Assembly (NCBI GenBank): GCA_022361075.1
Contig: JAKSBQ010000466.1
Span: 7,680 to 71,679 of the forward strand
DNA from: Opitutales bacterium
Lineage (GTDB): Bacteria > Verrucomicrobiota > Verrucomicrobiia > Opitutales > JAFGAQ01
Length of the DNA stretch: 64,000 bases
Direction of reading: 5' to 3'
Shown: positions 1,461 to 10,986 of the stretch, in pieces
How the letters are laid out: each line of letters starts with the position of its first letter
How positions within the stretch are numbered: the stretch's first letter is position 1
Program-made: the position numbers and the translations under genes
The notes under the pieces: generated by a model
Told to the model about the DNA's origin: nothing
What the model saw: only the letters and a program-made list of their open reading frames with translations
Database searches by the model: none

Positions 1461-3683
1461 CTATTCAGGCTGCTCCACCATTTCAAACAAGCTCCATCCG
1501 GAGTTTCCTGAATCCAACGCGTTCAGTTGGAAATACCAACCATCTCCACCGGCTGGGTACCACCGCCACGTTTGATTCGCATACAAATAAATCAACAATC
1601 CAGCTTCCGGCGATGAAAGATCCGTCTGAACATAGAACCAACCTGCGTTTTCCATCGGCAAAGTTTGAACGGTTCCGTCTTCGAGCGTCTGCTCAACCAC
1701 TTGCTCCCCGGCAAATTTGAAACTGTAAACCTTCGGGAACACCGTGTCGTTGATCCATCCCAGTCCTTTCAACAGCGATTGATTCGCGGAAGTATCTTTG
1801 ATTCCATTTTCGGGCAAAAGACCTTGAAAAACCGGAATGATCGAGCTTTTGGCAAGCACAGTTGGTATTTCGAGTAATTGGGCCGCATTGACCTCATCCA
1901 AGCTAGGTTTCGGTAAAGGTTCCCGTGAGGACATCCATCCTCCAATACCACCGGTTTTACCATCGAGGGAAACGGATCTACCCGTTCCGTTCAGAGGAAA
2001 CCACACGGCGGAAGTTTGCCCATCCGGGACCCAAATCCCATCAGCTACCAGAGTTGCCAAATCGTTAAAGATCATCCAGCGGTCTTCGGGGGTCGGGTCT
2101 TCTACTCCTTCAAAACGATACACGCCTGGATATCTTTGATCGGTAATCCATCCAAAATTCTGTCCAGCAATTCCATTCGCGTTCTTTACCCCATCCTCTA
2201 AAGGAATATTCAGAAATGGATTACCCTGACCCCAGACCGGAATACCTTCGGGTGCACCCAAAACGTCAAAAGAACTGATGATTTCAGGAGTGGGTATCGT
2301 CATATTTTGCGCCGGATCCATTACCCAACCATTTCCGGGGACTTCCATCAGACTAAACCGAAATCCCCACGGCTCTGTGCCACTGGGAAACCACGCCCAT
2401 CGATTCTCGTCGTAAAGATAGGCAAGAATGCCACTGGCCAAATTGGACAGTTCAGGATGCACATAAATCCATCCTCTCGAATTTCCGGTTTGCGACGCTC
2501 CTAGAACCGAACTCTTAACAATCGGAAACCTCGAATCTTCAACCGTTCCCAGTGAGGGATATCCGGCGGCTACCACATCTTTGACACCATCGATCTGAGC
2601 TAATGTCTGGAACGGATTCCCTAAACCCAAAGCTGGCGGTGAAGGAGGAACAACCAATGTACCCAGGAAGGCGGTAAGTTCTTCACCTTGGGGAACAATT
2701 GGCAATGAAGGGAGTGTGCCCCATCCACTGATACCGGAACCAGGATTGGTCAGGTTCTGTTCATACTCGGGCTTTTCTCTCGGCAACCACTTCCATTCAG
2801 CAGTGGCGAAAACGTAGATCAACAGCCCCCCACCCACAGTGTTCAGTTGCGGATAAAAATACACCCATCCTTTAAGTGGATCGATCAAAGGATCGACTAG
2901 GTCTTTTTGGCTCTCGGCCACTGAAAAACTGTAAACATAAGGGTAATTCACATCCCAGACCTTTCCGAGCTTCCACGGAGATTCCGGACCCTCACCCACA
3001 GTTTTCAGACCCTCCGCCTGAGGAAGTGTCAGAAAAGGTTGAACCGAATCCATTTCAGGCGGCAATTCCGGGATCACTTCAGGCACCACCACTTCGCCCG
3101 ATCCAGGCGCGAGGGAAACGGAATTAATCGCTTGCAACATCTGACCACCGGGAAAGCTGTTTCCCCCATAGCCATTGTGCTCAAATAACACCTCCCATTG
3201 CTGAATACCTTCTGCGTTTTTAACACCGTTTAAAACCACGAAGAAGGGTTGAGTGCTTACATCTGAGAATTGACTGAACGCACTTCGCTCTACGTCCATT
3301 AAAACGATTTCCAAACTAAAATTGCCGATAAAATTATTAATCCCATTCACGTTGGCACCCTCCACGTGCAACGCAATGTGCTTCACCGGAACACCATTCG
3401 CATTTTGAGTCCCGACATTACTCAACACCTGATCGTGGAGCGCCTGTGCTGCAGGTGGACAGAATGGACACCACCAACCAAACCACTCAAGTATGATAAT
3501 GCTGCCCTCCTCATCGTAGAGACTGAACGAATCCGTAGATTGCAAGTTCTGCGAATCGAAGTAAGGCAACGTAAAGTTGTTAGCGATTTGCCCAACAGCC
3601 CCATGTGAGTGATTCAAAATACCTAAACCCAAACAAAGAAATCCCAATTTCCTAACGGTCGATTTTAATGTGTTACTGCTCAT
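1461..3683 (-). CDS. Secreted thioredoxin-fold (CPFC) protein followed by four Trp/Tyr-rich ~90-aa repeat modules
   Basis: 740-aa ORF. N-terminal signal peptide (RKLGFLCLGLGILNHSHGA). Redoxin-like segment LEWFGWWCPFCPPAAQ, with CPFC encoded at 3459-3470. Then four modules with pattern NPF..L...G[VI]K..LG.[IV].D..[FY]P.VY[SR]...GW.Y......G.L.YLY....W.W.P. A 7-nt gap to the upstream gene suggests an operon. Confidence 0.7.
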   Translation of the reverse strand: MSSNTLKSTVRKLGFLCLGLGILNHSHGAVGQIANNFTLPYFDSQNLQSTDSFSLYDEEGSIIILEWFGWWCPFCPPAAQALHDQVLSNVGTQNANGVPVKHIALHVEGANVNGINNFIGNFSLEIVLMDVERSAFSQFSDVSTQPFFVVLNGVKNAEGIQQWEVLFEHNGYGGNSFPGGQMLQAINSVSLAPGSGEVVVPEVIPELPPEMDSVQPFLTLPQAEGLKTVGEGPESPWKLGKVWDVNYPYVYSFSVAESQKDLVDPLIDPLKGWVYFYPQLNTVGGGLLIYVFATAEWKWLPREKPEYEQNLTNPGSGISGWGTLPSLPIVPQGEELTAFLGTLVVPPSPPALGLGNPFQTLAQIDGVKDVVAAGYPSLGTVEDSRFPIVKSSVLGASQTGNSRGWIYVHPELSNLASGILAYLYDENRWAWFPSGTEPWGFRFSLMEVPGNGWVMDPAQNMTIPTPEIISSFDVLGAPEGIPVWGQGNPFLNIPLEDGVKNANGIAGQNFGWITDQRYPGVYRFEGVEDPTPEDRWMIFNDLATLVADGIWVPDGQTSAVWFPLNGTGRSVSLDGKTGGIGGWMSSREPLPKPSLDEVNAAQLLEIPTVLAKSSIIPVFQGLLPENGIKDTSANQSLLKGLGWINDTVFPKVYSFKFAGEQVVEQTLEDGTVQTLPMENAGWFYVQTDLSSPEAGLLIYLYANQTWRWYPAGGDGWYFQLNALDSGNSGWSLFEMVEQPE

Positions 3684-3690
3684 GATTTGA

Positions 3691-4809
3691 CTACCAATTT
3701 ATTGAATACCCTATTTTAAAAAAATCCCAATTGCGTGAAGAATAAAGAGGAGCGAAGCGTAGGTCTAAACCCAACTCATCATAATTTTGCTCATAGACTC
3801 CGACTTGGGCTGTAATCTGATGAGTAGCATCCAATGACGTCCACGAAGCCCCTAAAAAATAACGATACCCGATCACCCCTGGTGCGGCATCCGTCGCCAG
3901 GTTCGATTGTTCGATCTCTCCGTTGTCCTTATAATAACTACCCGTCACAGAGAATGACCATGTCTCATTGGGAGCATAGATTAAGCTTGAGCGTAGTAGT
4001 GAGGCTTCCACATCACTACCCTCCCTGCTGTATTGACCTGACAACCGCAAGATCCAGCTTTCACTGAGCGCAGCACTGAGCGCTGAAGCGACACCATATC
4101 TCACCTTACGTCCTGTGGTTTCAACAGCGCTCAGGCTGTGATTCCATCTCAAAGTTCGACTAGATAGATGCTCCAGGCTAAGCTCAGCAGACCAAACATC
4201 CAGATCTTCTATTCCCCTCACCAATTGACCTGCAGTGTCTCCTTCCACAGATAAATCATAGCCAGGCGCAATCGTTTGCTTGGAATACCCCAATCGCATT
4301 CGCACAAAAGCGTTACTCGGAATCCATTCCCAATCGGCACCAAGGACGAAACCAAGACCCCCGGGATCTGGTGTTTCGTAGCGATCACCTTCTATCTCTA
4401 CATCTGTCCAAAACTGGCGATAATATTCATCCAACCAAATGCTCTGATGTCTGGAAAATCCATCGAAGAGGTCTAAAATCGCAATTCCTTTGAACCTCTG
4501 CTGCAGTTGCTTCGAAATCTCAAATGACCCGGAATAATAATTCTCGGATCGATCCGCCGAATCGGTGACAATATCGATTGGAAATCCTACCGATTCATAA
4601 TCGATCTCGGTTCTCTGAGAGATTAATGAAACTCTAAACTCATAATCATCTTTGGTTAAGCGATGATCCACAAGTGCGCTCGTATAGTCGATATCCTCGG
4701 AACTCAGAAACTCAACAACTCCCGCAGTCACATTTTCAACGAACTGAGCCTCAACGCGAATGGACACGCTAATCGCGAGCAAAACGAATAGAGCCTTGTT
4801 GCGCTTCAT
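3691..4809 (-). CDS. Outer-membrane beta-barrel protein, DUF3570-like
   Basis: I place the start at MKRNKALFVLLAISVSIRVEAQ (signal peptide; CAT at 4807-4809), which overlaps the upstream stop as ATGA. Size is ~372 aa, with alternating hydrophobic/polar strand-like segments and a terminal aromatic residue (..IGYSINW). The context, with a DUF4266-like lipoprotein and a TlpA-like protein, matches my memory of the DUF4266/DUF3570 neighbourhood. The family assignment is not verified by any search. Confidence 0.55.
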   Translation of the reverse strand: MKRNKALFVLLAISVSIRVEAQFVENVTAGVVEFLSSEDIDYTSALVDHRLTKDDYEFRVSLISQRTEIDYESVGFPIDIVTDSADRSENYYSGSFEISKQLQQRFKGIAILDLFDGFSRHQSIWLDEYYRQFWTDVEIEGDRYETPDPGGLGFVLGADWEWIPSNAFVRMRLGYSKQTIAPGYDLSVEGDTAGQLVRGIEDLDVWSAELSLEHLSSRTLRWNHSLSAVETTGRKVRYGVASALSAALSESWILRLSGQYSREGSDVEASLLRSSLIYAPNETWSFSVTGSYYKDNGEIEQSNLATDAAPGVIGYRYFLGASWTSLDATHQITAQVGVYEQNYDELGLDLRFAPLYSSRNWDFFKIGYSINW

Positions 4810-5315
4810 CCCAAATCCTCCAGTTCCGCTTTTAATTCCTTGAAGTTCGGAAATCCGACTGAACGATAAACCACTGACGATGAACTCCACCCTTTCCTGA
4901 GGTCGATCACTACCACAAGCGGTAGTCCTTCATTTTGCCCCAACTCTTCAAAGAACTTCCCGTCGTCATCCTGAAAAGCCTCTTCGAGCTTCATTCTTTC
5001 TACAAATCTCTTCGTTCTGGCTTCTGAAGATCCGTCAACATTCACAGCCACCATTTCGAGATTCAATGCAGAATCGTTCGTGGATTCTTTTTTGAAACTT
5101 TCGACAAACTCATGAATGGCCGGAGTAGCCTTGTAACAAGGCTTGCACCAGTGAGCGAAAAAATCGAATACCACAACTGACCCTTCAAATTCCGATAAAG
5201 CCACCGATTCCGAAACACCGATCTTGGATAATTCGTATTCCTGAAACTCAAATGCTACCACTGAGTTCAGCAAGTGACTACAAGTAATCCCAAAAGCTAT
5301 TCCTAATCTTTTCAT
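4806..5315 (-). CDS. TlpA/ResA-like periplasmic thiol:disulfide oxidoreductase (redoxin fold)
   Basis: Motif VVVFDFFAHWCKPCYKATP, with WCKPC encoded at about 5136-5147. The likely start is MKRLGIAFGITCS (CAT 5313-5315), since the longer ORF would overlap the upstream gene. The 3' end overlaps the next gene's start by 4 nt. Confidence 0.8.
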   Translation of the reverse strand: MKRLGIAFGITCSHLLNSVVAFEFQEYELSKIGVSESVALSEFEGSVVVFDFFAHWCKPCYKATPAIHEFVESFKKESTNDSALNLEMVAVNVDGSSEARTKRFVERMKLEEAFQDDDGKFFEELGQNEGLPLVVVIDLRKGWSSSSVVYRSVGFPNFKELKAELEDLG

Positions 5316-5322
5316 ACCTTCA

Positions 5323-5559
5323 TTATTTGCAGGAAGAACAACTTGTGGACGCAGCTCCTCCGCTGCCCAATACACCGGGTTCAAGTAAACCCGCTAGACG
5401 ATCCATATGCGAAGAAGCAGGAAGTGGGCTCACTTGCATATCCGCCCTCGCGAGTTGCCCTTGTTCCTGCACCGGAATCACAGCGCACCCACACAGGCTA
5501 AAGAGCACCAGCAGCAGAGCGAGGGGTTTAAGAAACGTGATTTTTTGGCACTTTTTCAT
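5323..5559 (-). CDS. Small lipoprotein, DUF4266-like
   Basis: 78 aa. Signal peptide plus lipobox LFSLCGC, then ..VIPVQEQGQLARADM..H.DR....G..GSGG...SCSSCK. The size (67-84 aa class), the lipobox, the Gly-rich region and the C-terminal CxxC tail resemble DUF4266 as I remember it. It is the first gene of the four-gene operon. Confidence 0.5.
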   Translation of the reverse strand: MKKCQKITFLKPLALLLVLFSLCGCAVIPVQEQGQLARADMQVSPLPASSHMDRLAGLLEPGVLGSGGAASTSCSSCK

Positions 5560-5575
5560 TCGGCTTTAAAAGTAG

Positions 5576-5601
5576 AACGAACCAAACAGGTGAATATTCC
5601 C
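5576..5601 (-). promoter_or_regulatory. ECF-type promoter P4 (GGGAATA-N13-TTCGTT) upstream of the DUF4266-like operon
   Basis: The minus strand reads TCGGGAATATTCACCTGTTTGGTTCGTTCTA. The -35 GGGAAT is at 5596-5601 and the -10 CGTT at 5576-5579, with a 16-nt spacer. Architecture matches the three copies at 7457-7715. It lies 17 nt upstream of the ATG at 5559. Confidence 0.55.
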
Positions 5602-5630
5602 GAATAGTTCAATTTTTCCTCAAACTTTAG

Positions 5631-5663
5631 ATAAACTAAAACAGGCCACCGAAAAGTGACCTG
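5631..5663 (-). terminator. Rho-independent terminator after the spondin-domain gene
   Basis: The minus-strand RNA forms CAGGUCAC-uuuucg-GUGGCCUG (8-bp stem with one G-U pair; arms at 5642-5649 and 5656-5663), followed by UUUUAGUUUAU. It sits between the stop at 5706 and promoter P4. Confidence 0.6.
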
Positions 5664-5705
5664 CTTTTACATTAGAACGAGTTAGAAACAGCCGAACCAT
5701 TCAAC

Positions 5706-7403
5706 CTATTCGACTTCGAGAATTTCACCTGTACTGAGATTTTCAAATCGACGGGGATTCGCACTATCCACTTCGTAACGATACCAGGTGGAATCCTCCA
5801 TTCGGTAGATGTTGGGATAGTAGCTCTCAGAGGTGAAAATCCATCCCATGTCCCCCTGAGAATTAAAAGTCCAAAATCCTTCCGCATTACCTGCTCGCTG
5901 GAAGAAAAGCATTCCATGCTGAAGATGCTTCACCCACGGAAATCCAGAATCGTTCGCAATTCCAAATACTGGTGAACCACGATACCCTTCTGCACTTGCA
6001 GGAATACCTGCCCAAGGATTGTAGCGCTCCCAGATCTGTATCTTTGCAACTTGATATCCCGCTTGAGTGAAATCAGCCGCAGGGAATTGCGTTAACACAT
6101 TTCCACCAGCTATAAAACCCGGATGCGCTCCAACGACTCCGCCTTCAGTCGCTCCTGTATTTGGAGCCATTTGCCCGAGGACCGGAACATTTTGAGGTGC
6201 CTCGTCATTCACTTCAGTTCCTGCATCCCAAACGTTAGCTCCCTCAATCATAATCGTGGTGGGCTGGAAAATTCCACCTTCGTAGATGCGATATGCTGTC
6301 GGATTGTCGTTTGAGACAAACGCATCGTTACTCGGAAGGATCATCGATTGATATGAGAAATACTCGTGCGATGGATTGTTTGCGTCTACAGAGACAAATG
6401 AACTGCTGGATTGCCCCTGGAAAAACAAAGGTGGGCCACCTGGATTTTGAGGTCCGGTAAGGGTAGAGCTCCATCCATTTGCAACAGAAGCCGCAAAAAG
6501 ATCCGACAAGGGTCCTGTGTTTCCGTCCTCAGCAATGCCTTCAACGCCGCCCGATGCTGCTTCACCAACATTGAAAATATCAAATGATCCGTCATGCAAA
6601 CCTACCCAGAATGGAGTGAGGATCGTTCCCATGTCTGGCGCCGAGTTAGAAATTTCGATTTCCAACGTGCGATGACTCTCGGGCAATTTCTCCACGATGA
6701 TGCGCACAACAGCATAATTAGCTTGTTTGAAATCTCCATTTGGAGCAAAAGCCAAAATAGCTCCTCCAGGATTAAAGCCTGGGTGCAAGGTGACTACTCC
6801 ATTTTCGGTACCACCTGTATTTGCGACTGTTTGTCCAAGCATCGGAACGTTCTCCGCTACCTCGTCATTCACTTCAGTTCCTGCATCATAGACCATGCTT
6901 CCCATGATCTCCCAGGTCCCTCCGACAAAATTACCGTTAGCATCGTAAATCATTAGTCCCATCGGATCATCATTACCGATGAAAGCGTCATTACTGGGCA
7001 AAATCATTGAGAGAAAACTCATGTAGCGATGATTCGGATTCGATGGGTCAAGATTGATGCGAGTCATGTTCCCTGTCTGAGGGAAAAGCAACGGCGGGCC
7101 GTTCGGATTGGGCCTTCCAGTCAACACAAGATCTTTACCACCGCTGGATGCTGCAAAGTCAGCCCTGAGCGTCGCACCATTACCATCTTCCGCTATCGCT
7201 TCCAGACCAGCAGATGCAGGTGCACCAGCGTTGAATGTATCAAAATTCCCGTCATGAAATCCAAACCAGATCGGGGTAAGGGTAACTCCACCACCAGGAG
7301 CGGTAGATTCAACAGTGATGCGGATATTGTCCGCCGACAGACTGGAGGCTGTTATCGCCATAAATGCCGTAAACAGTGAGAGTAGCTGAGTATATTTTTT
7401 CAT
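5706..7403 (-). CDS. Secreted protein with two tandem spondin_N-like domains and a C-terminal copy of the Trp-rich module
   Basis: 565 aa with signal peptide MKKYTQLLSLFTAFMAITASSLSA. Two ~220-aa copies carry LTP.W.G.HDG.FD.FN.G..AS.G.E.IAEDGN...L...F......GPP.....ILPSNDAF..ND.P....DAGTEVNDE..NVP.LGQ, the spondin N-terminal pattern seen in bacterial homologues. The tail NPWAGIPASAEGYRGSPVFGIANDSGFPWVKH..GW.. matches the modules of the 740-aa protein. Confidence 0.7.
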   Translation of the reverse strand: MKKYTQLLSLFTAFMAITASSLSADNIRITVESTAPGGGVTLTPIWFGFHDGNFDTFNAGAPASAGLEAIAEDGNGATLRADFAASSGGKDLVLTGRPNPNGPPLLFPQTGNMTRINLDPSNPNHRYMSFLSMILPSNDAFIGNDDPMGLMIYDANGNFVGGTWEIMGSMVYDAGTEVNDEVAENVPMLGQTVANTGGTENGVVTLHPGFNPGGAILAFAPNGDFKQANYAVVRIIVEKLPESHRTLEIEISNSAPDMGTILTPFWVGLHDGSFDIFNVGEAASGGVEGIAEDGNTGPLSDLFAASVANGWSSTLTGPQNPGGPPLFFQGQSSSSFVSVDANNPSHEYFSYQSMILPSNDAFVSNDNPTAYRIYEGGIFQPTTIMIEGANVWDAGTEVNDEAPQNVPVLGQMAPNTGATEGGVVGAHPGFIAGGNVLTQFPAADFTQAGYQVAKIQIWERYNPWAGIPASAEGYRGSPVFGIANDSGFPWVKHLQHGMLFFQRAGNAEGFWTFNSQGDMGWIFTSESYYPNIYRMEDSTWYRYEVDSANPRRFENLSTGEILEVE

Positions 7404-7456
7404 TTTAATTACCTGTTTTTAGCCCTCAAAAAAAGGGCGATGATGTTTGCTTCTCC

Positions 7457-7482
7457 GACGATCCAAGCCCTCCCATATTCCC
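7457..7482 (-). promoter_or_regulatory. ECF-type promoter P3 (GGGAATA-N13-ATCGTC) facing the spondin-domain gene
   Basis: The minus strand reads TGGGGAATATGGGAGGGCTTGGATCGTCGG. The -35 is at 7477-7482 and the -10 CGTC at 7457-7460, with a 16-nt spacer. It lies ~50 nt upstream of the ATG at 7403. Confidence 0.6.
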
Positions 7483-7505
7483 CAAAAAAATAATAAAAAT
7501 TTCTT

Positions 7506-7531
7506 GGGAATAAATGGCTCACTTCATCGTC
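7506..7531 (+). promoter_or_regulatory. ECF-type promoter P1 (GGGAATA-N13-ATCGTC), distal, facing the sigma gene
   Basis: TTGGGAATAAATGGCTCACTTCATCGTCTCA. GGGAAT is at 7506-7511 and CGTC at 7528-7531, with a 16-nt spacer. It stands back-to-back with P3, 24 bp away across an A/T-rich tract. Confidence 0.55.
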
Positions 7532-7689
7532 TCACTACGTTCGACGAGGGCGACTATGGCTGATAATGGTCGCATTTTTTTGCCATCAAATTTTTATCAG
7601 AAAAGTTCTTTCAAGTATCCAAATGCTCTCAGCCGATGTTCATTGTGAAAACGTCCAAGATCATTTTTTCAAAAAAACTCCAATCTTAT

Positions 7690-7715
7690 GGGAATAGGAA
7701 CCACAGTTAATCGTC
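7690..7715 (+). promoter_or_regulatory. ECF-type promoter P2 (GGGAATA-N13-ATCGTC), proximal autoregulatory promoter of the sigma gene
   Basis: TATGGGAATAGGAACCACAGTTAATCGTCATA. GGGAAT is at 7690-7695 and CGTC at 7712-7715, with a 16-nt spacer. The ATG at 7730 follows ~15 nt after the -10, implying a very short leader. Confidence 0.6.
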
Positions 7716-7729
7716 ATAGAACTACACAC

Positions 7730-8248
7730 ATGGTGGATTTTGAACAAACAGCCCGTACAAATTACCAACGACTATACGCCTTCGCGTTGCAACTGACGCG
7801 AAATCCATCTGACGCCGAAGATCTAACTCAACATGCCTTTTACCGACTAGCCGTGCACATCCAGAATTTGAAAGAAGAAAACAAGGTCAAGAGTTGGCTG
7901 TATTCCACGCTCTACAGAAAATTCATCGATCAAAGGAGACGCACCGTCAAATTCCCATCCGTACAATTTGAGGAGACGACCAATCACGTAGAGGAAAACA
8001 CCAAGCGCCAAGAGCGGTTAGATCATCAAACGGTAAAGGAAATGCTCCTCAGCCTGGAAGAACACCTGCGCATCCCTCTGTCACTATTTTACATCGAACA
8101 CTACAGTTATAAAGAAATCTCGAAACTACTCGAGATACCCGTGGGAACCGTAATGTCGAGACTCCACCGAGGTAAGGCTGAGCTGTACCGTAAGCTCTCC
8201 GAAACACCAAATCAAAAGACTGGATCAACAGACACACCAACACGCTAA
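7730..8248 (+). CDS. ECF (sigma-70 group IV) RNA polymerase sigma factor
   Basis: Region 2 is YQRLYAFALQLTRNPSDAEDLTQHAFYRL....WLYSTLYRKFIDQRRR. Region 4 is the HTH YSYKEISKLLEIPVGTVMSRLHRGKAEL. I chose the start at MVDFEQ (7730) because the ORF-track start at 7688 lies inside promoter P2. Confidence 0.9.
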   Translation: MVDFEQTARTNYQRLYAFALQLTRNPSDAEDLTQHAFYRLAVHIQNLKEENKVKSWLYSTLYRKFIDQRRRTVKFPSVQFEETTNHVEENTKRQERLDHQTVKEMLLSLEEHLRIPLSLFYIEHYSYKEISKLLEIPVGTVMSRLHRGKAELYRKLSETPNQKTGSTDTPTR

Positions 8249-8254
8249 AGTAAG

Positions 8255-9055
8255 ATGAAAACAGATTACAAAGAATTACTCAGTGCTTATCGTCCCGATA
8301 CCGCAGATCAAAATGATCCACTTTTTGCGCAGGCACTTGAACAACTTGAGCACGATGTAGAACTCAAAGAATGGTTCGACGAACAAAAGGACATGGATGC
8401 TGAGATACGCGCTGCACTTTTGACTGATGATGCACCCGAGACACTTCTGGAAGATGTGCTTGAATTCGGTGCTGAAGTTAAGAAAAAGAATCGCAAAATC
8501 ATTCGTTTTTTTCAGCCAGCTCAACTTATGGCGATCGCTGCCTGTATTGCTCTGGTAGGAATATTCGCTTTCAAGGATTCCATCATCAACAATCAGATCA
8601 TTGGGTACCACTCCGCTCTTTCAAAAGTGGAGCAGAAAGAAACCTTTCGGGACGCGATGAGCCTATGGGTCGCCGACACCTTCATCGTGCTGGATCATTT
8701 CGCCGAAGAACCCGCCCAACTCGTAAACTATCTGGCTGACACCGGAAGTCCGGTTTTCGACGCAATACCTGCCAACCTCGAACAACTACCAACTCTGGGC
8801 TGCAAATCCTTCAAGTGGAAAGATCAAACAGTATCGCTCATTTGTTTCCATTCTCAGGAGGGTAAAATCGTGCACTTATTTGTTTTATCACCGTCGAACG
8901 AACCAACTGAAGCTATCGATCAAATGCATCAACTGCAGTTTCTACACGATCTGCCAAGCAAGGGTTGGTATGACGAAAACTCTAACAAGCAACACATGCT
9001 GGTTGGATCTGCACGCGACGTTTCACTGGATCAGTTTAATACCCAAATGATCTAG
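8255..9055 (+). CDS. Single-pass anti-sigma factor (putative), Cys-less N-terminal domain
   Basis: It starts 6 nt after the sigma gene. The helical N-terminus is DPLFAQALEQLEHDVELKEWFDEQKDMDAEIRAAL, in the position of an anti-sigma domain but without the HxxxCxxC zinc motif. There is one TM helix (LMAIAACIALVGIFAF) and a ~160-aa extracytoplasmic domain of unknown fold. Confidence 0.6.
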   Translation: MKTDYKELLSAYRPDTADQNDPLFAQALEQLEHDVELKEWFDEQKDMDAEIRAALLTDDAPETLLEDVLEFGAEVKKKNRKIIRFFQPAQLMAIAACIALVGIFAFKDSIINNQIIGYHSALSKVEQKETFRDAMSLWVADTFIVLDHFAEEPAQLVNYLADTGSPVFDAIPANLEQLPTLGCKSFKWKDQTVSLICFHSQEGKIVHLFVLSPSNEPTEAIDQMHQLQFLHDLPSKGWYDENSNKQHMLVGSARDVSLDQFNTQMI

Positions 9056-10934: not shown

Positions 10935-10986
10935 TATTTCGCTTTTTAACGAAATAAATCATTGACTATTTCGCAGATTAGCGAAA
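10935..10986 (+). promoter_or_regulatory. Two inverted-repeat operators upstream of arsR
   Basis: IR1 is TATTTCG-N8-CGAAATA (10935-10956). IR2 is TTTCGC-N6-GCGAAA (10969-10986). Both begin with the 9-mer CTATTTCGC (10934 and 10966, 32 bp apart). They lie immediately 5' of the arsR ATG at 10998. Confidence 0.55.

Follow-up and report, generated by a model that had tools for sequence, protein, structure and literature searches.

The 64-kb window analysed here (64,000 nucleotides of contig JAKSBQ010000466.1 of a marine Opitutales bacterium (Verrucomicrobiota), numbered from its first letter) contains a gene for a sigma factor of the extracytoplasmic function (ECF) type, followed on the same strand by a gene for a putative membrane anti-sigma factor. 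A gene for a secreted protein with spondin_N domains is divergent from the sigma gene, and beyond it lies a four-gene operon encoding envelope proteins, tightly packed from 5559 down to 1461. Four copies of one ECF-type promoter motif, P1 to P4, are placed between these genes. The features are listed by position; bit scores refer to the weight matrix described below.

1461-3683, minus strand: last operon gene, for a secreted 740-aa protein in which a thioredoxin-like domain (CPFC) at the N-terminus precedes four repeats of about 120 aa.
3691-4809, minus strand: outer-membrane beta-barrel of 372 aa; its ATG at 4809 overlaps the preceding stop codon as ATGA.
4806-5315, minus strand: thioredoxin-like protein of the TlpA/ResA type with a CKPC active site (Pfam); ATG 5315 is the likely start, and the open reading frame (ORF) extends to 5384.
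5323-5559, minus strand: small lipoprotein of 78 aa ending in CSSCK; resembles DUF4266 below threshold; first gene of the operon.
5576-5601, minus strand: P4, ECF-type promoter (GGGAATA, TTCGTT -10), 20.8 bits.
5638-5667, minus strand: intrinsic terminator with a 13-bp stem, 3' of the spondin gene and between it and P4 (terminator scan).
5706-7403, minus strand: secreted 565-aa protein; two spondin_N domains (Pfam, NCBIfam) are followed by a C-terminal domain of about 110 aa; predicted target of P3.
7457-7482, minus strand: P3, ECF-type promoter facing the spondin gene, 29.0 bits, the best site in the window.
7506-7531, plus strand: P1, a second plus-strand copy, back-to-back with P3, 19.9 bits.
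7550-7581, plus strand: terminator-like hairpin (8 bp) followed by T7, 19 nt 3' of the P1 -10 element (terminator scan).
7690-7715, plus strand: P2, ECF-type promoter (GGGAATA -35, TCGTC -10), 17.6 bits.
7730-8248, plus strand: ECF sigma gene, 172 aa, with sigma-2 and sigma-4 domains only (Pfam, NCBIfam).
8255-9055, plus strand: anti-sigma gene, 266 aa, starting 6 nt 3' of the sigma stop codon.

The initial annotation had described four sites that share GGGAATA and an identical 16-nt gap between GGGAAT and CGT(C/T). A pattern search of both strands bears this out: GGGAAT-N16-CGTY has exactly four matches in the window against a chance expectation of 0.33, the letters of P1-P4 are exactly as they had been quoted, and none of 100 dinucleotide-preserving shuffles gave four matches. 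All four sites are intergenic, spread over 2.1 kb, and each is oriented towards a downstream gene or region. Relaxing the pattern to GGAAT-N16-CGT yields just three further matches in the window, and no fifth site emerges there when the spacer may take 15-17 nt. Because the heptamer GGGAATA by itself is not enriched in the window (7 occurrences, 6.4 expected), the signal must reside in the combination of -35 element, fixed spacer, -10 element and placement.

A weight matrix trained solely on 12 sites of other genomes was then run over the window. P3, P4, P1 and P2, in this order, are its top four positions, and the fifth-ranked position scores 10.0 bits. In 100 Markov-simulated windows there were 7 matches of at least 17.6 bits in all, corresponding to 0.07 per window. 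Unrelated loci totalling 2.25 Mb, with the strands counted separately, contain 2 matches of at least 15 bits, or about 1 per Mb, and one of these, in Cedecea, is likely an ECF promoter itself. All four window sites and the 12 orthologous sites combine G(G)AATA with CGT(C/T), and this promoter type has a T-rich stretch 5' of the -35 element. The motif is asymmetric and constantly points to the downstream gene, 11-65 nt 5' of its start codon.

The sigma factor has the domain content of the ECF family (group IV; sigma-2 and sigma-4 domains in about 170-200 aa): it matches Pfam Sigma70_r2 and Sigma70_r4_2, and scores 83 bits with the NCBIfam model TIGR02937 sigma70-ECF (cutoff 42.9). Alignment with homologues places the start at ATG 7730; the alternative ATG 7688 would swallow P2. 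The -10 element of P2 ends 14 nt before the sigma ATG. Autoregulation by the adjacent sigma factor is the rule in ECF systems. By its sequence, P2 looks like such an autoregulatory promoter (AAC/AAT-type -35, CGT-type -10), and the motif is conserved in at least eight genomes. The motif is found 5' of the orthologous sigma gene at the collected loci L081, L082/L083, L084, L085 and L087/L088, as well as in Pelagicoccus mobilis (L001) and Rubellicoccus peritrichatus (L129), and its position just 5' of these genes supports the autoregulation through P2 that had been suggested. L085, with a sigma factor 84% identical to that of the window, is arranged likewise, with a single site 16 nt from -10 to ATG; the spondin gene is absent. 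A scan of a genome collection with the sigma alignment returned, among the matches listed, mostly distant ECF sigma factors of at most 44% identity, most of them without the motif; the matches on Photobacterium and Phaeobacter plasmids had no informative gene context.

The linkage to the spondin gene is also conserved. Sigma orthologues with 53-61% identity (L081, L082/L083, L084 and L087/L088) all have a divergent spondin_N gene, and the same back-to-back motif pair occupies the sigma-spondin intergenic region; in L081 the minus-strand site reads GGGAATAAAAGAGCGGACAGGTCGTC and the plus-strand site GGGAATAAACTCTCATTTCATTCGTC. The divergent spondin orthologues of L081-L084 are 59-61% identical to the window protein. 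In Roseibacillus persicicus (L009), from a different order, the spondin, sigma and anti-sigma genes are all on one strand, and GGGAATA-N16-CGTC is found 5' of the spondin gene, i.e. with a 17-nt spacing versus 16 nt in the window. Since the motif is kept through several gene arrangements, it appears to travel with the sigma and spondin genes. In the window P1 and P3 are back-to-back as had been described, with P3 facing the tandem spondin_N gene. The assignment of the spondin protein rests on Pfam Spond_N (PF06468; 48 bits, cutoff 24) and NF038123 (261 bits, cutoff 40), each of which matches two stretches. In the literature, we found no paper linking ECF sigma factors with spondin, and papers on spondin and Verrucomicrobia concerned gut biology only, among the matches listed.

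The -10 element of P3 lies 53 nt from the spondin ATG at 7403. The predicted 5' leader of the spondin mRNA contains a short hairpin between P3 and the start codon (7422-7438; GCCCTC-AAAAAAA-GGGC on the plus strand); compared with the 99% identical strain L086 there are two single-base deletions, one of them in the hairpin loop. A possible homology of the spondin C-terminal domain (5706-6050, minus strand) to the repeats of the 740-aa protein was considered and is not claimed, the BLASTP matches being weak (E 0.013-0.2).

P4 had been placed 3' of the spondin terminator and 5' of the four-gene operon. The terminator was found by the scan, and sites orthologous to P4 precede the operon elsewhere. 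In L089/L091 the same operon lies on the same strand as the orthologous sigma/anti-sigma genes (51% identity), directly 5' of them, with GGGAATAATCTCCAGGCTTCTACGTT (GGGAATA-N15-ACGTT) before it. It starts with a small, unannotated lipoprotein gene whose product ends in TSCSSCR and continues with genes for a thioredoxin, a barrel of 373 aa and a protein of 739 aa. In L090, which comes from the same sample as the sigma locus L084, the operon has no sigma gene nearby and is preceded by GGGGAATATCTGATGATTTCGTTCGTT (GGGGAATA-N15-TCGTT). Both sites have a CGTT -10 element. The -10 element of P4 itself is 16 nt from the start of the small-lipoprotein gene.

A metagenome scan added 36 barrel loci, in which the barrel gene adjoins thioredoxin-like genes wherever the flank suffices. 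The small-lipoprotein gene was recovered at 15 distinct loci, and 9 of them have GGAATA 36-61 nt 5' of the start codon (0.37 expected). The -10 element at the lipoprotein loci is CGTC, CGTT, CGCTC, CACTC, ACCTC or CAGTC. We conclude that the association of the operon with promoters of this type is conserved far outside the window.

Where the promoter architecture can be compared with mapped promoters, the closest match is the ECF26 group. ECF26-dependent promoters have been mapped in Sinorhizobium (S.) meliloti, and the cross-species consensus is GGAATA for the -35 and GT for the -10 element (Lang et al. 2018, PMC6180224). The window sites agree with it (-35 GGAATA, -10 GT/CGTC). The S. meliloti sorT promoter, CGAGGGAATTTTCCGGGGCGTCAGTCGTC, fits GGGAAT-N16-CGTC exactly, the rpoE4 promoter is TCATGGAATAAGCGAGGCAGCTCGCTCGTC, also TGGAATAAGCGAGGCAGCTCGCTCGTC, and transcription starts 8-10 nt 3' of CGTC (PMC6180224). 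This match and the positional conservation described above argue that the sites are indeed of the ECF promoter type, as had been proposed from their letters. The best match of the window sigma factor in S. meliloti is encoded at the rpoE3 locus (RpoE3, ECF26; 32.5% identity, E 1e-15), which we identified as such because its upstream sequence equals the tabulated rpoE3 promoter (PMC6180224).

The window system resembles the ECF26 systems of S. meliloti (RpoE1, RpoE3, RpoE4 and RpoE6 with EcfR1-6) in several ways: a two-domain sigma factor is followed by a single-pass anti-sigma factor, the sigma gene is autoregulated (in the window by prediction), the regulon is small and includes divergent or co-transcribed periplasmic proteins, and the promoters combine -35 GGAATA with -10 (C)GTC at the same 16-17 nt gap. 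It differs in the low sigma identity (32.5% to RpoE3) and in an anti-sigma factor from a different family with an invariant periplasmic cysteine pair; at the BLASTP level the anti-sigma factor does not resemble the COG5662 type typical of ECF26 (PMC3511301). The targets differ as well, being sulfite oxidase, catalase/cytochrome b561 and Lipoprotein_15 in ECF26, and the spondin_N protein and the thioredoxin/barrel operon here. The window sigma factor may therefore work like an ECF26 sigma factor, and is a candidate member of that group only.

One Cedecea locus (L077, Cedecea sp. S5-13), which was retrieved by sigma similarity, deserves mention. At 8257-8292 it has the motif CGGGGAATAAACTTCCATTTCGTTCGTC 5' of an operon encoding a catalase-like protein, cytochrome b561, an ECF sigma factor 38% identical to that of the window and an anti-sigma factor. 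A catalase/cytochrome b561 context has been described for ECF26s1 (Casas-Pastor et al. 2021). A neighbouring gene at this locus encodes a HopBA1-type effector.

The E. coli sigma-E system (RpoE/RseA) provides a more distant comparison. It shares with the window system, as predicted here, a membrane anti-sigma factor, an autoregulated sigma gene and envelope-protein targets. The E. coli promoter is GGAACTT/TCTGA, and the sigma-dependent small RNAs are MicA, RybB and MicL. The window system belongs to another ECF group, has a different promoter and anti-sigma family, lacks RseB/RseC genes, and the regulon seen is tiny. Short transcripts such as those discussed below (the one predicted from P1, and the ORF-less one of Rubellicoccus) have a precedent in the E. 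coli small RNAs.

The anti-sigma gene adjoins the sigma gene in all relatives, and the gene layout is that of a cognate anti-sigma factor co-transcribed with its sigma factor, to which it is predicted to bind. In its product, a helical cytoplasmic N-terminal part is joined to a periplasmic domain by a single membrane segment, at about residues 88-106. The only Pfam resemblance is a weak, sub-threshold match to DUF3379 (21 bits, cutoff 33). A profile search against PDB sequences gave no match, and neither S. meliloti EcfR3 nor the Cedecea anti-sigma factor resembled it in BLASTP (E above 0.3). The structure model, based on an alignment of just 2 homologues, has a pLDDT of 51 and is too poor for a fold search. 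Among the loci collected here, the family occurs only in Verrucomicrobiota. Two periplasmic cysteines, C183 and C197, are invariant in all 23 Verrucomicrobiota homologues (the window protein and 22 others, from L001-L129), regardless of the neighbouring genes, and lie in the motif G-C-[KR]...[LI]-C-F...H-L-F (residues 183-209). The two cysteines sit on adjacent predicted strands, and the pair may be a structural disulphide or a redox switch. Being shared by the entire anti-sigma family, it is no distinguishing mark of this regulon.

Taken together, these data point to an autoregulated ECF (group IV) sigma factor with a membrane anti-sigma factor and four promoters of the type it recognises, a reading to which we assign a probability of about 80%. 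It holds because the motif is conserved and matches the mapped ECF26 promoters. At rest, the single-pass anti-sigma factor would hold the sigma factor at the membrane. An envelope signal would inactivate the anti-sigma factor, and the sigma factor so freed would direct RNA polymerase to the four sites. Transcription from P2 would supply more sigma and anti-sigma factor in a positive feedback, P3 would serve the secreted protein with two spondin_N domains, and P4 the operon for the CxxC-terminal lipoprotein, the thioredoxin-like protein, the outer-membrane beta-barrel and the 740-aa thioredoxin-fused repeat protein. The sigma/anti-sigma module, with three convincing predicted target promoters (P2, P3 and P4) and a fourth (P1) of uncertain output, is well supported. 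This is an ordinary kind of bacterial stress-response circuit, and no new principle is revealed by it. The self-contained regulon of the initial annotation is more than 64 kb can show. Relatives often carry the spondin gene and the operon apart from one another or from the sigma gene, which suggests that further unlinked targets may exist beyond the window.

Some features of the predicted transcripts follow from the placement of the -10 elements. As these sit 14 nt (P2) and 16 nt (P4) from the start codons, the rule of a start site 8-10 nt downstream gives predicted leaders of about 5-9 nt, and the P2 and P4 mRNAs are probably near-leaderless. A -10-to-ATG distance of 11-16 nt recurs in L085 and eight lipoprotein loci, which implies that predicted near-leaderless mRNAs without a Shine-Dalgarno sequence are used at many loci. 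Examples of the short gap are window positions 5560-5575 and 7716-7729, and the loci L085, L089, L090, L096, L100, L111 and L127.

P1 is the least transparent of the four sites. In L081, L082/L083, L084 and L087/L088 the plus-strand member of the pair is directly 5' of the sigma gene, so P1 occupies the position of the sigma promoter in relatives. In the window, and in the 99% identical strain L086, it lies 184 nt upstream of P2. Judged from the relatives, P1/P3 is the ancestral back-to-back pair. Owing to the hairpin and T7 just downstream, P1 could give rise to a terminated RNA of about 42 nt or to an attenuated leader; its output could be this RNA, read-through into the sigma gene, both, or nothing. 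The hairpin folds with -12.6 kcal/mol (z -1.3), which is unexceptional against shuffles, and the 200-nt leader folds no better than shuffles either. The P1-P2 spacer matches nothing in Rfam, and nothing similar to it occurs elsewhere in the window or at any collected locus. A small protein expressed from P1 (a 32-aa ORF starting at ATG 7556) was considered and rejected: the stop codon is lost in L086.

In Rubellicoccus peritrichatus (L129, CP136920; 9520-9790, minus strand), the minus-strand motif of the pair faces about 235 nt of sequence instead of a spondin gene. This stretch has no convincing ORF and ends in a 14-bp GC-rich hairpin followed by T7 (9562-9520). We regard it as a candidate for a small RNA under ECF control; its Rfam matches are far below the gathering scores.

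Several points weigh against the autoregulated sigma factor with four promoters. The sequences themselves show the motif, its statistics and positional conservation, the gene content, the export signals and the agreement with mapped ECF26 promoters; that this sigma factor uses the sites, where transcription starts, what signal acts and what the physiological role is are inferred from them. The motif scan covers 64 kb of this genome and the part of the regulon encoded there. The motif is absent from 6 of the 15 lipoprotein-operon loci, and several others have CGCTC, CACTC or CAGTC in place of CGTC as the -10 element. P1 has no gene of its own downstream, and the initial annotation had assigned it no target. 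Between the window and L086, the P1-P2 spacer diverges by 3.2% compared with about 2.1% for coding genes, and the absence of single-nucleotide differences from P1, P2 and P3 is not significant, as about 2 would be expected. It is possible, at rather worse than even odds, that P1 is a non-functional relic or the by-product of a local rearrangement in which the promoter was duplicated, that only P2-P4 matter and that the hairpin and T7 have no role. The single plus-strand site that serves the sigma gene in relatives fits this, as do the 158-nt spacer after P1, which is unique, without an Rfam match and slightly faster-diverging than coding sequence, its unconserved small ORF and a hairpin that is no better than shuffles. 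A decayed relic would be expected to have lost its -35 or -10 element, however, and P1 is a full-strength motif that scores above P2 (25.9 bits with a matrix that includes the window sites) and is unchanged in the second strain.

Verrucomicrobia usually have many ECF paralogues. ECF26-type sigma factors cross-activate each other's promoters in S. meliloti (PMC3511301, PMC10880074), where RpoE1, RpoE4 and RpoE6 all activate one ECF26 promoter (PMC10880074). For both reasons a paralogue encoded elsewhere in the genome could contribute. Carried to its end, this argument would make P1-P4 genuine ECF promoters served mainly by a paralogous sigma factor outside the window, or by several cross-talking paralogues, and the overlapping promoter use in S. 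meliloti, the occurrence of GGAATA/CGTC in distant lineages (Cedecea included) and the 64-kb limit of the examined sequence all lend themselves to it. The motif travels with the orthologue of the window sigma factor in at least eight genomes and three gene arrangements, though, and similarity to the window sigma factor reveals no further sigma gene in the window. Given also that an ECF sigma factor as a rule regulates its own gene, we consider a paralogue as the main user decidedly unlikely. We give hardly any credence to the view that the repeats are not promoters at all, whether operators bound by some regulatory protein or similar sequences clustered by chance. In principle, another protein could bind a two-part motif of fixed spacing, but the present motif is asymmetric, oriented to genes, 11-65 nt 5' of start codons, preceded by a T-rich stretch and equal, base for base, to the mapped ECF26 -35 and -10 elements, and chance is excluded by the shuffle, matrix and locus statistics.

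A physiological role can be proposed as a hypothesis only. Three of the five target products have cysteine chemistry (the CxxC lipoprotein, the CKPC protein and the CPFC protein), which together with the anti-sigma cysteine pair suggests that the regulon serves envelope thiol-redox or protein-folding maintenance. All target products have predicted signal or lipoprotein leaders. In a stronger form of this idea, which we think unlikely, the anti-sigma factor would be a sensor of thiol-redox state or oxidative folding, and loss or reduction of its disulphide would free the sigma factor to induce an envelope redox module comprising the CxxC lipoprotein, the thioredoxin-like protein, a non-flavinylated relative of the DUF3570-type barrels, the thioredoxin-fused repeat protein and the spondin_N protein. 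The sigma factor would, in some lineages, also induce short non-coding RNAs, namely the transcript of about 42 nt from P1 and that of about 235 nt in Rubellicoccus. If true, this would be a new envelope redox stress response with the first ECF-dependent small RNAs of the phylum.

The initial annotation had described the operon in terms of DUF4266, TlpA and DUF3570. Features of DUF3570 proteins are flavinylation motifs of the form [S/T]GA[S/T] and the association with an ApbE gene (PMC8238504). Searched with DUF3570 (PF12094), neither the window barrel (E values up to 5) nor any of four relatives (E up to 1) gave a match; none of the 11 family members has [ST]GA[ST] in its barrel part, and Pfam and NCBIfam scans found no ApbE-like gene in the operon. 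With no Pfam match in five members, no motif and no ApbE gene, the DUF3570 label finds no support. An AlphaFold model of the barrel (pLDDT 83) has about 16 strands, and Foldseek matches it to generic OmpG, FadL and OprD barrels in the PDB (TM about 0.45). The family is rare, with 10 database homologues, none of which has a precomputed Pfam domain.

The DUF4266 label fares little better. The window lipoprotein does not match DUF4266 (PF14086); three of seven members of its family reach 15-16 bits (E 0.02-0.05; cutoff 27) over nearly the whole model, and the C-terminus has CxxC instead of CxC. A distant relationship is plausible on this sub-threshold resemblance. The family C-terminus is GC[ST][AST]C[KRQ] in all 14 members from an ORF search that itself selected on the C-terminal cysteine motif; a fifteenth member (L128) is alike. 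As for TlpA, the thioredoxin-like protein is of the TlpA/ResA type, with a thioredoxin fold, a CxxC motif and predicted periplasmic export through an N-terminal hydrophobic leader, and it matches Pfam Thioredoxin_8, AhpC-TSA and Redoxin above their cutoffs. It is not TlpA in the narrow sense, scoring 49 bits with the NCBIfam TlpA equivalog model (cutoff 230).

What stands of the operon description is its overall composition, and because this parallels the DUF4266/thioredoxin-like/DUF3570/ApbE clusters (Meheust et al. 2021, PMC8238504), the analogy is reasonable. The two modules match in composition and sizes: each encodes a small secreted protein that has cysteines at its C-terminus, a thioredoxin-like protein, and one of outer-membrane type with about 370-420 aa. 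The window operon differs in having no DUF3570 match, flavinylation motif or ApbE gene, in its CxxC terminus and in the extra 740-aa protein, and the parallel is one of composition, not of demonstrated family membership; the fourth gene had been left undescribed. The 740-aa protein matches AhpC-TSA/ResA weakly, has internal repeats and matches the thioredoxin gene as a paralogue, and orthologues are encoded 3' of the barrel gene in L089 and L090. Its repeats show a recurring pattern, G-W-[IVF]...Y-P-x-[VI]-Y ... W-x-[WY]. Neither these repeats nor the spondin C-terminal domain have a Pfam match.

To our knowledge, experiments have revealed next to nothing about gene regulation in Verrucomicrobiota. 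The locus offers a cleanly defined sigma/promoter pair with predicted targets in this under-studied phylum, and the same module is present in the cultured relatives Rubellicoccus peritrichatus, Pelagicoccus mobilis and Roseibacillus persicicus. It gives bacterial spondin_N proteins and the rare lipoprotein/thioredoxin/barrel module a regulatory context, and hence a likely role in envelope stress. It would also extend the GGAATA/CGTC specificity of proteobacterial ECF26 sigma factors to Verrucomicrobiota, with a different anti-sigma family, which is useful for promoter prediction and the design of orthogonal genetic switches.

Finally, an unrelated element was noticed elsewhere in the window. 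At 10944-10979, between an EamA transporter gene and a gene for an ArsR-type helix-turn-helix protein, there is an operator-like palindrome, CGAAATA...TATTTCG, whose weak score with the promoter matrix is due to GAAATA half-sites only.

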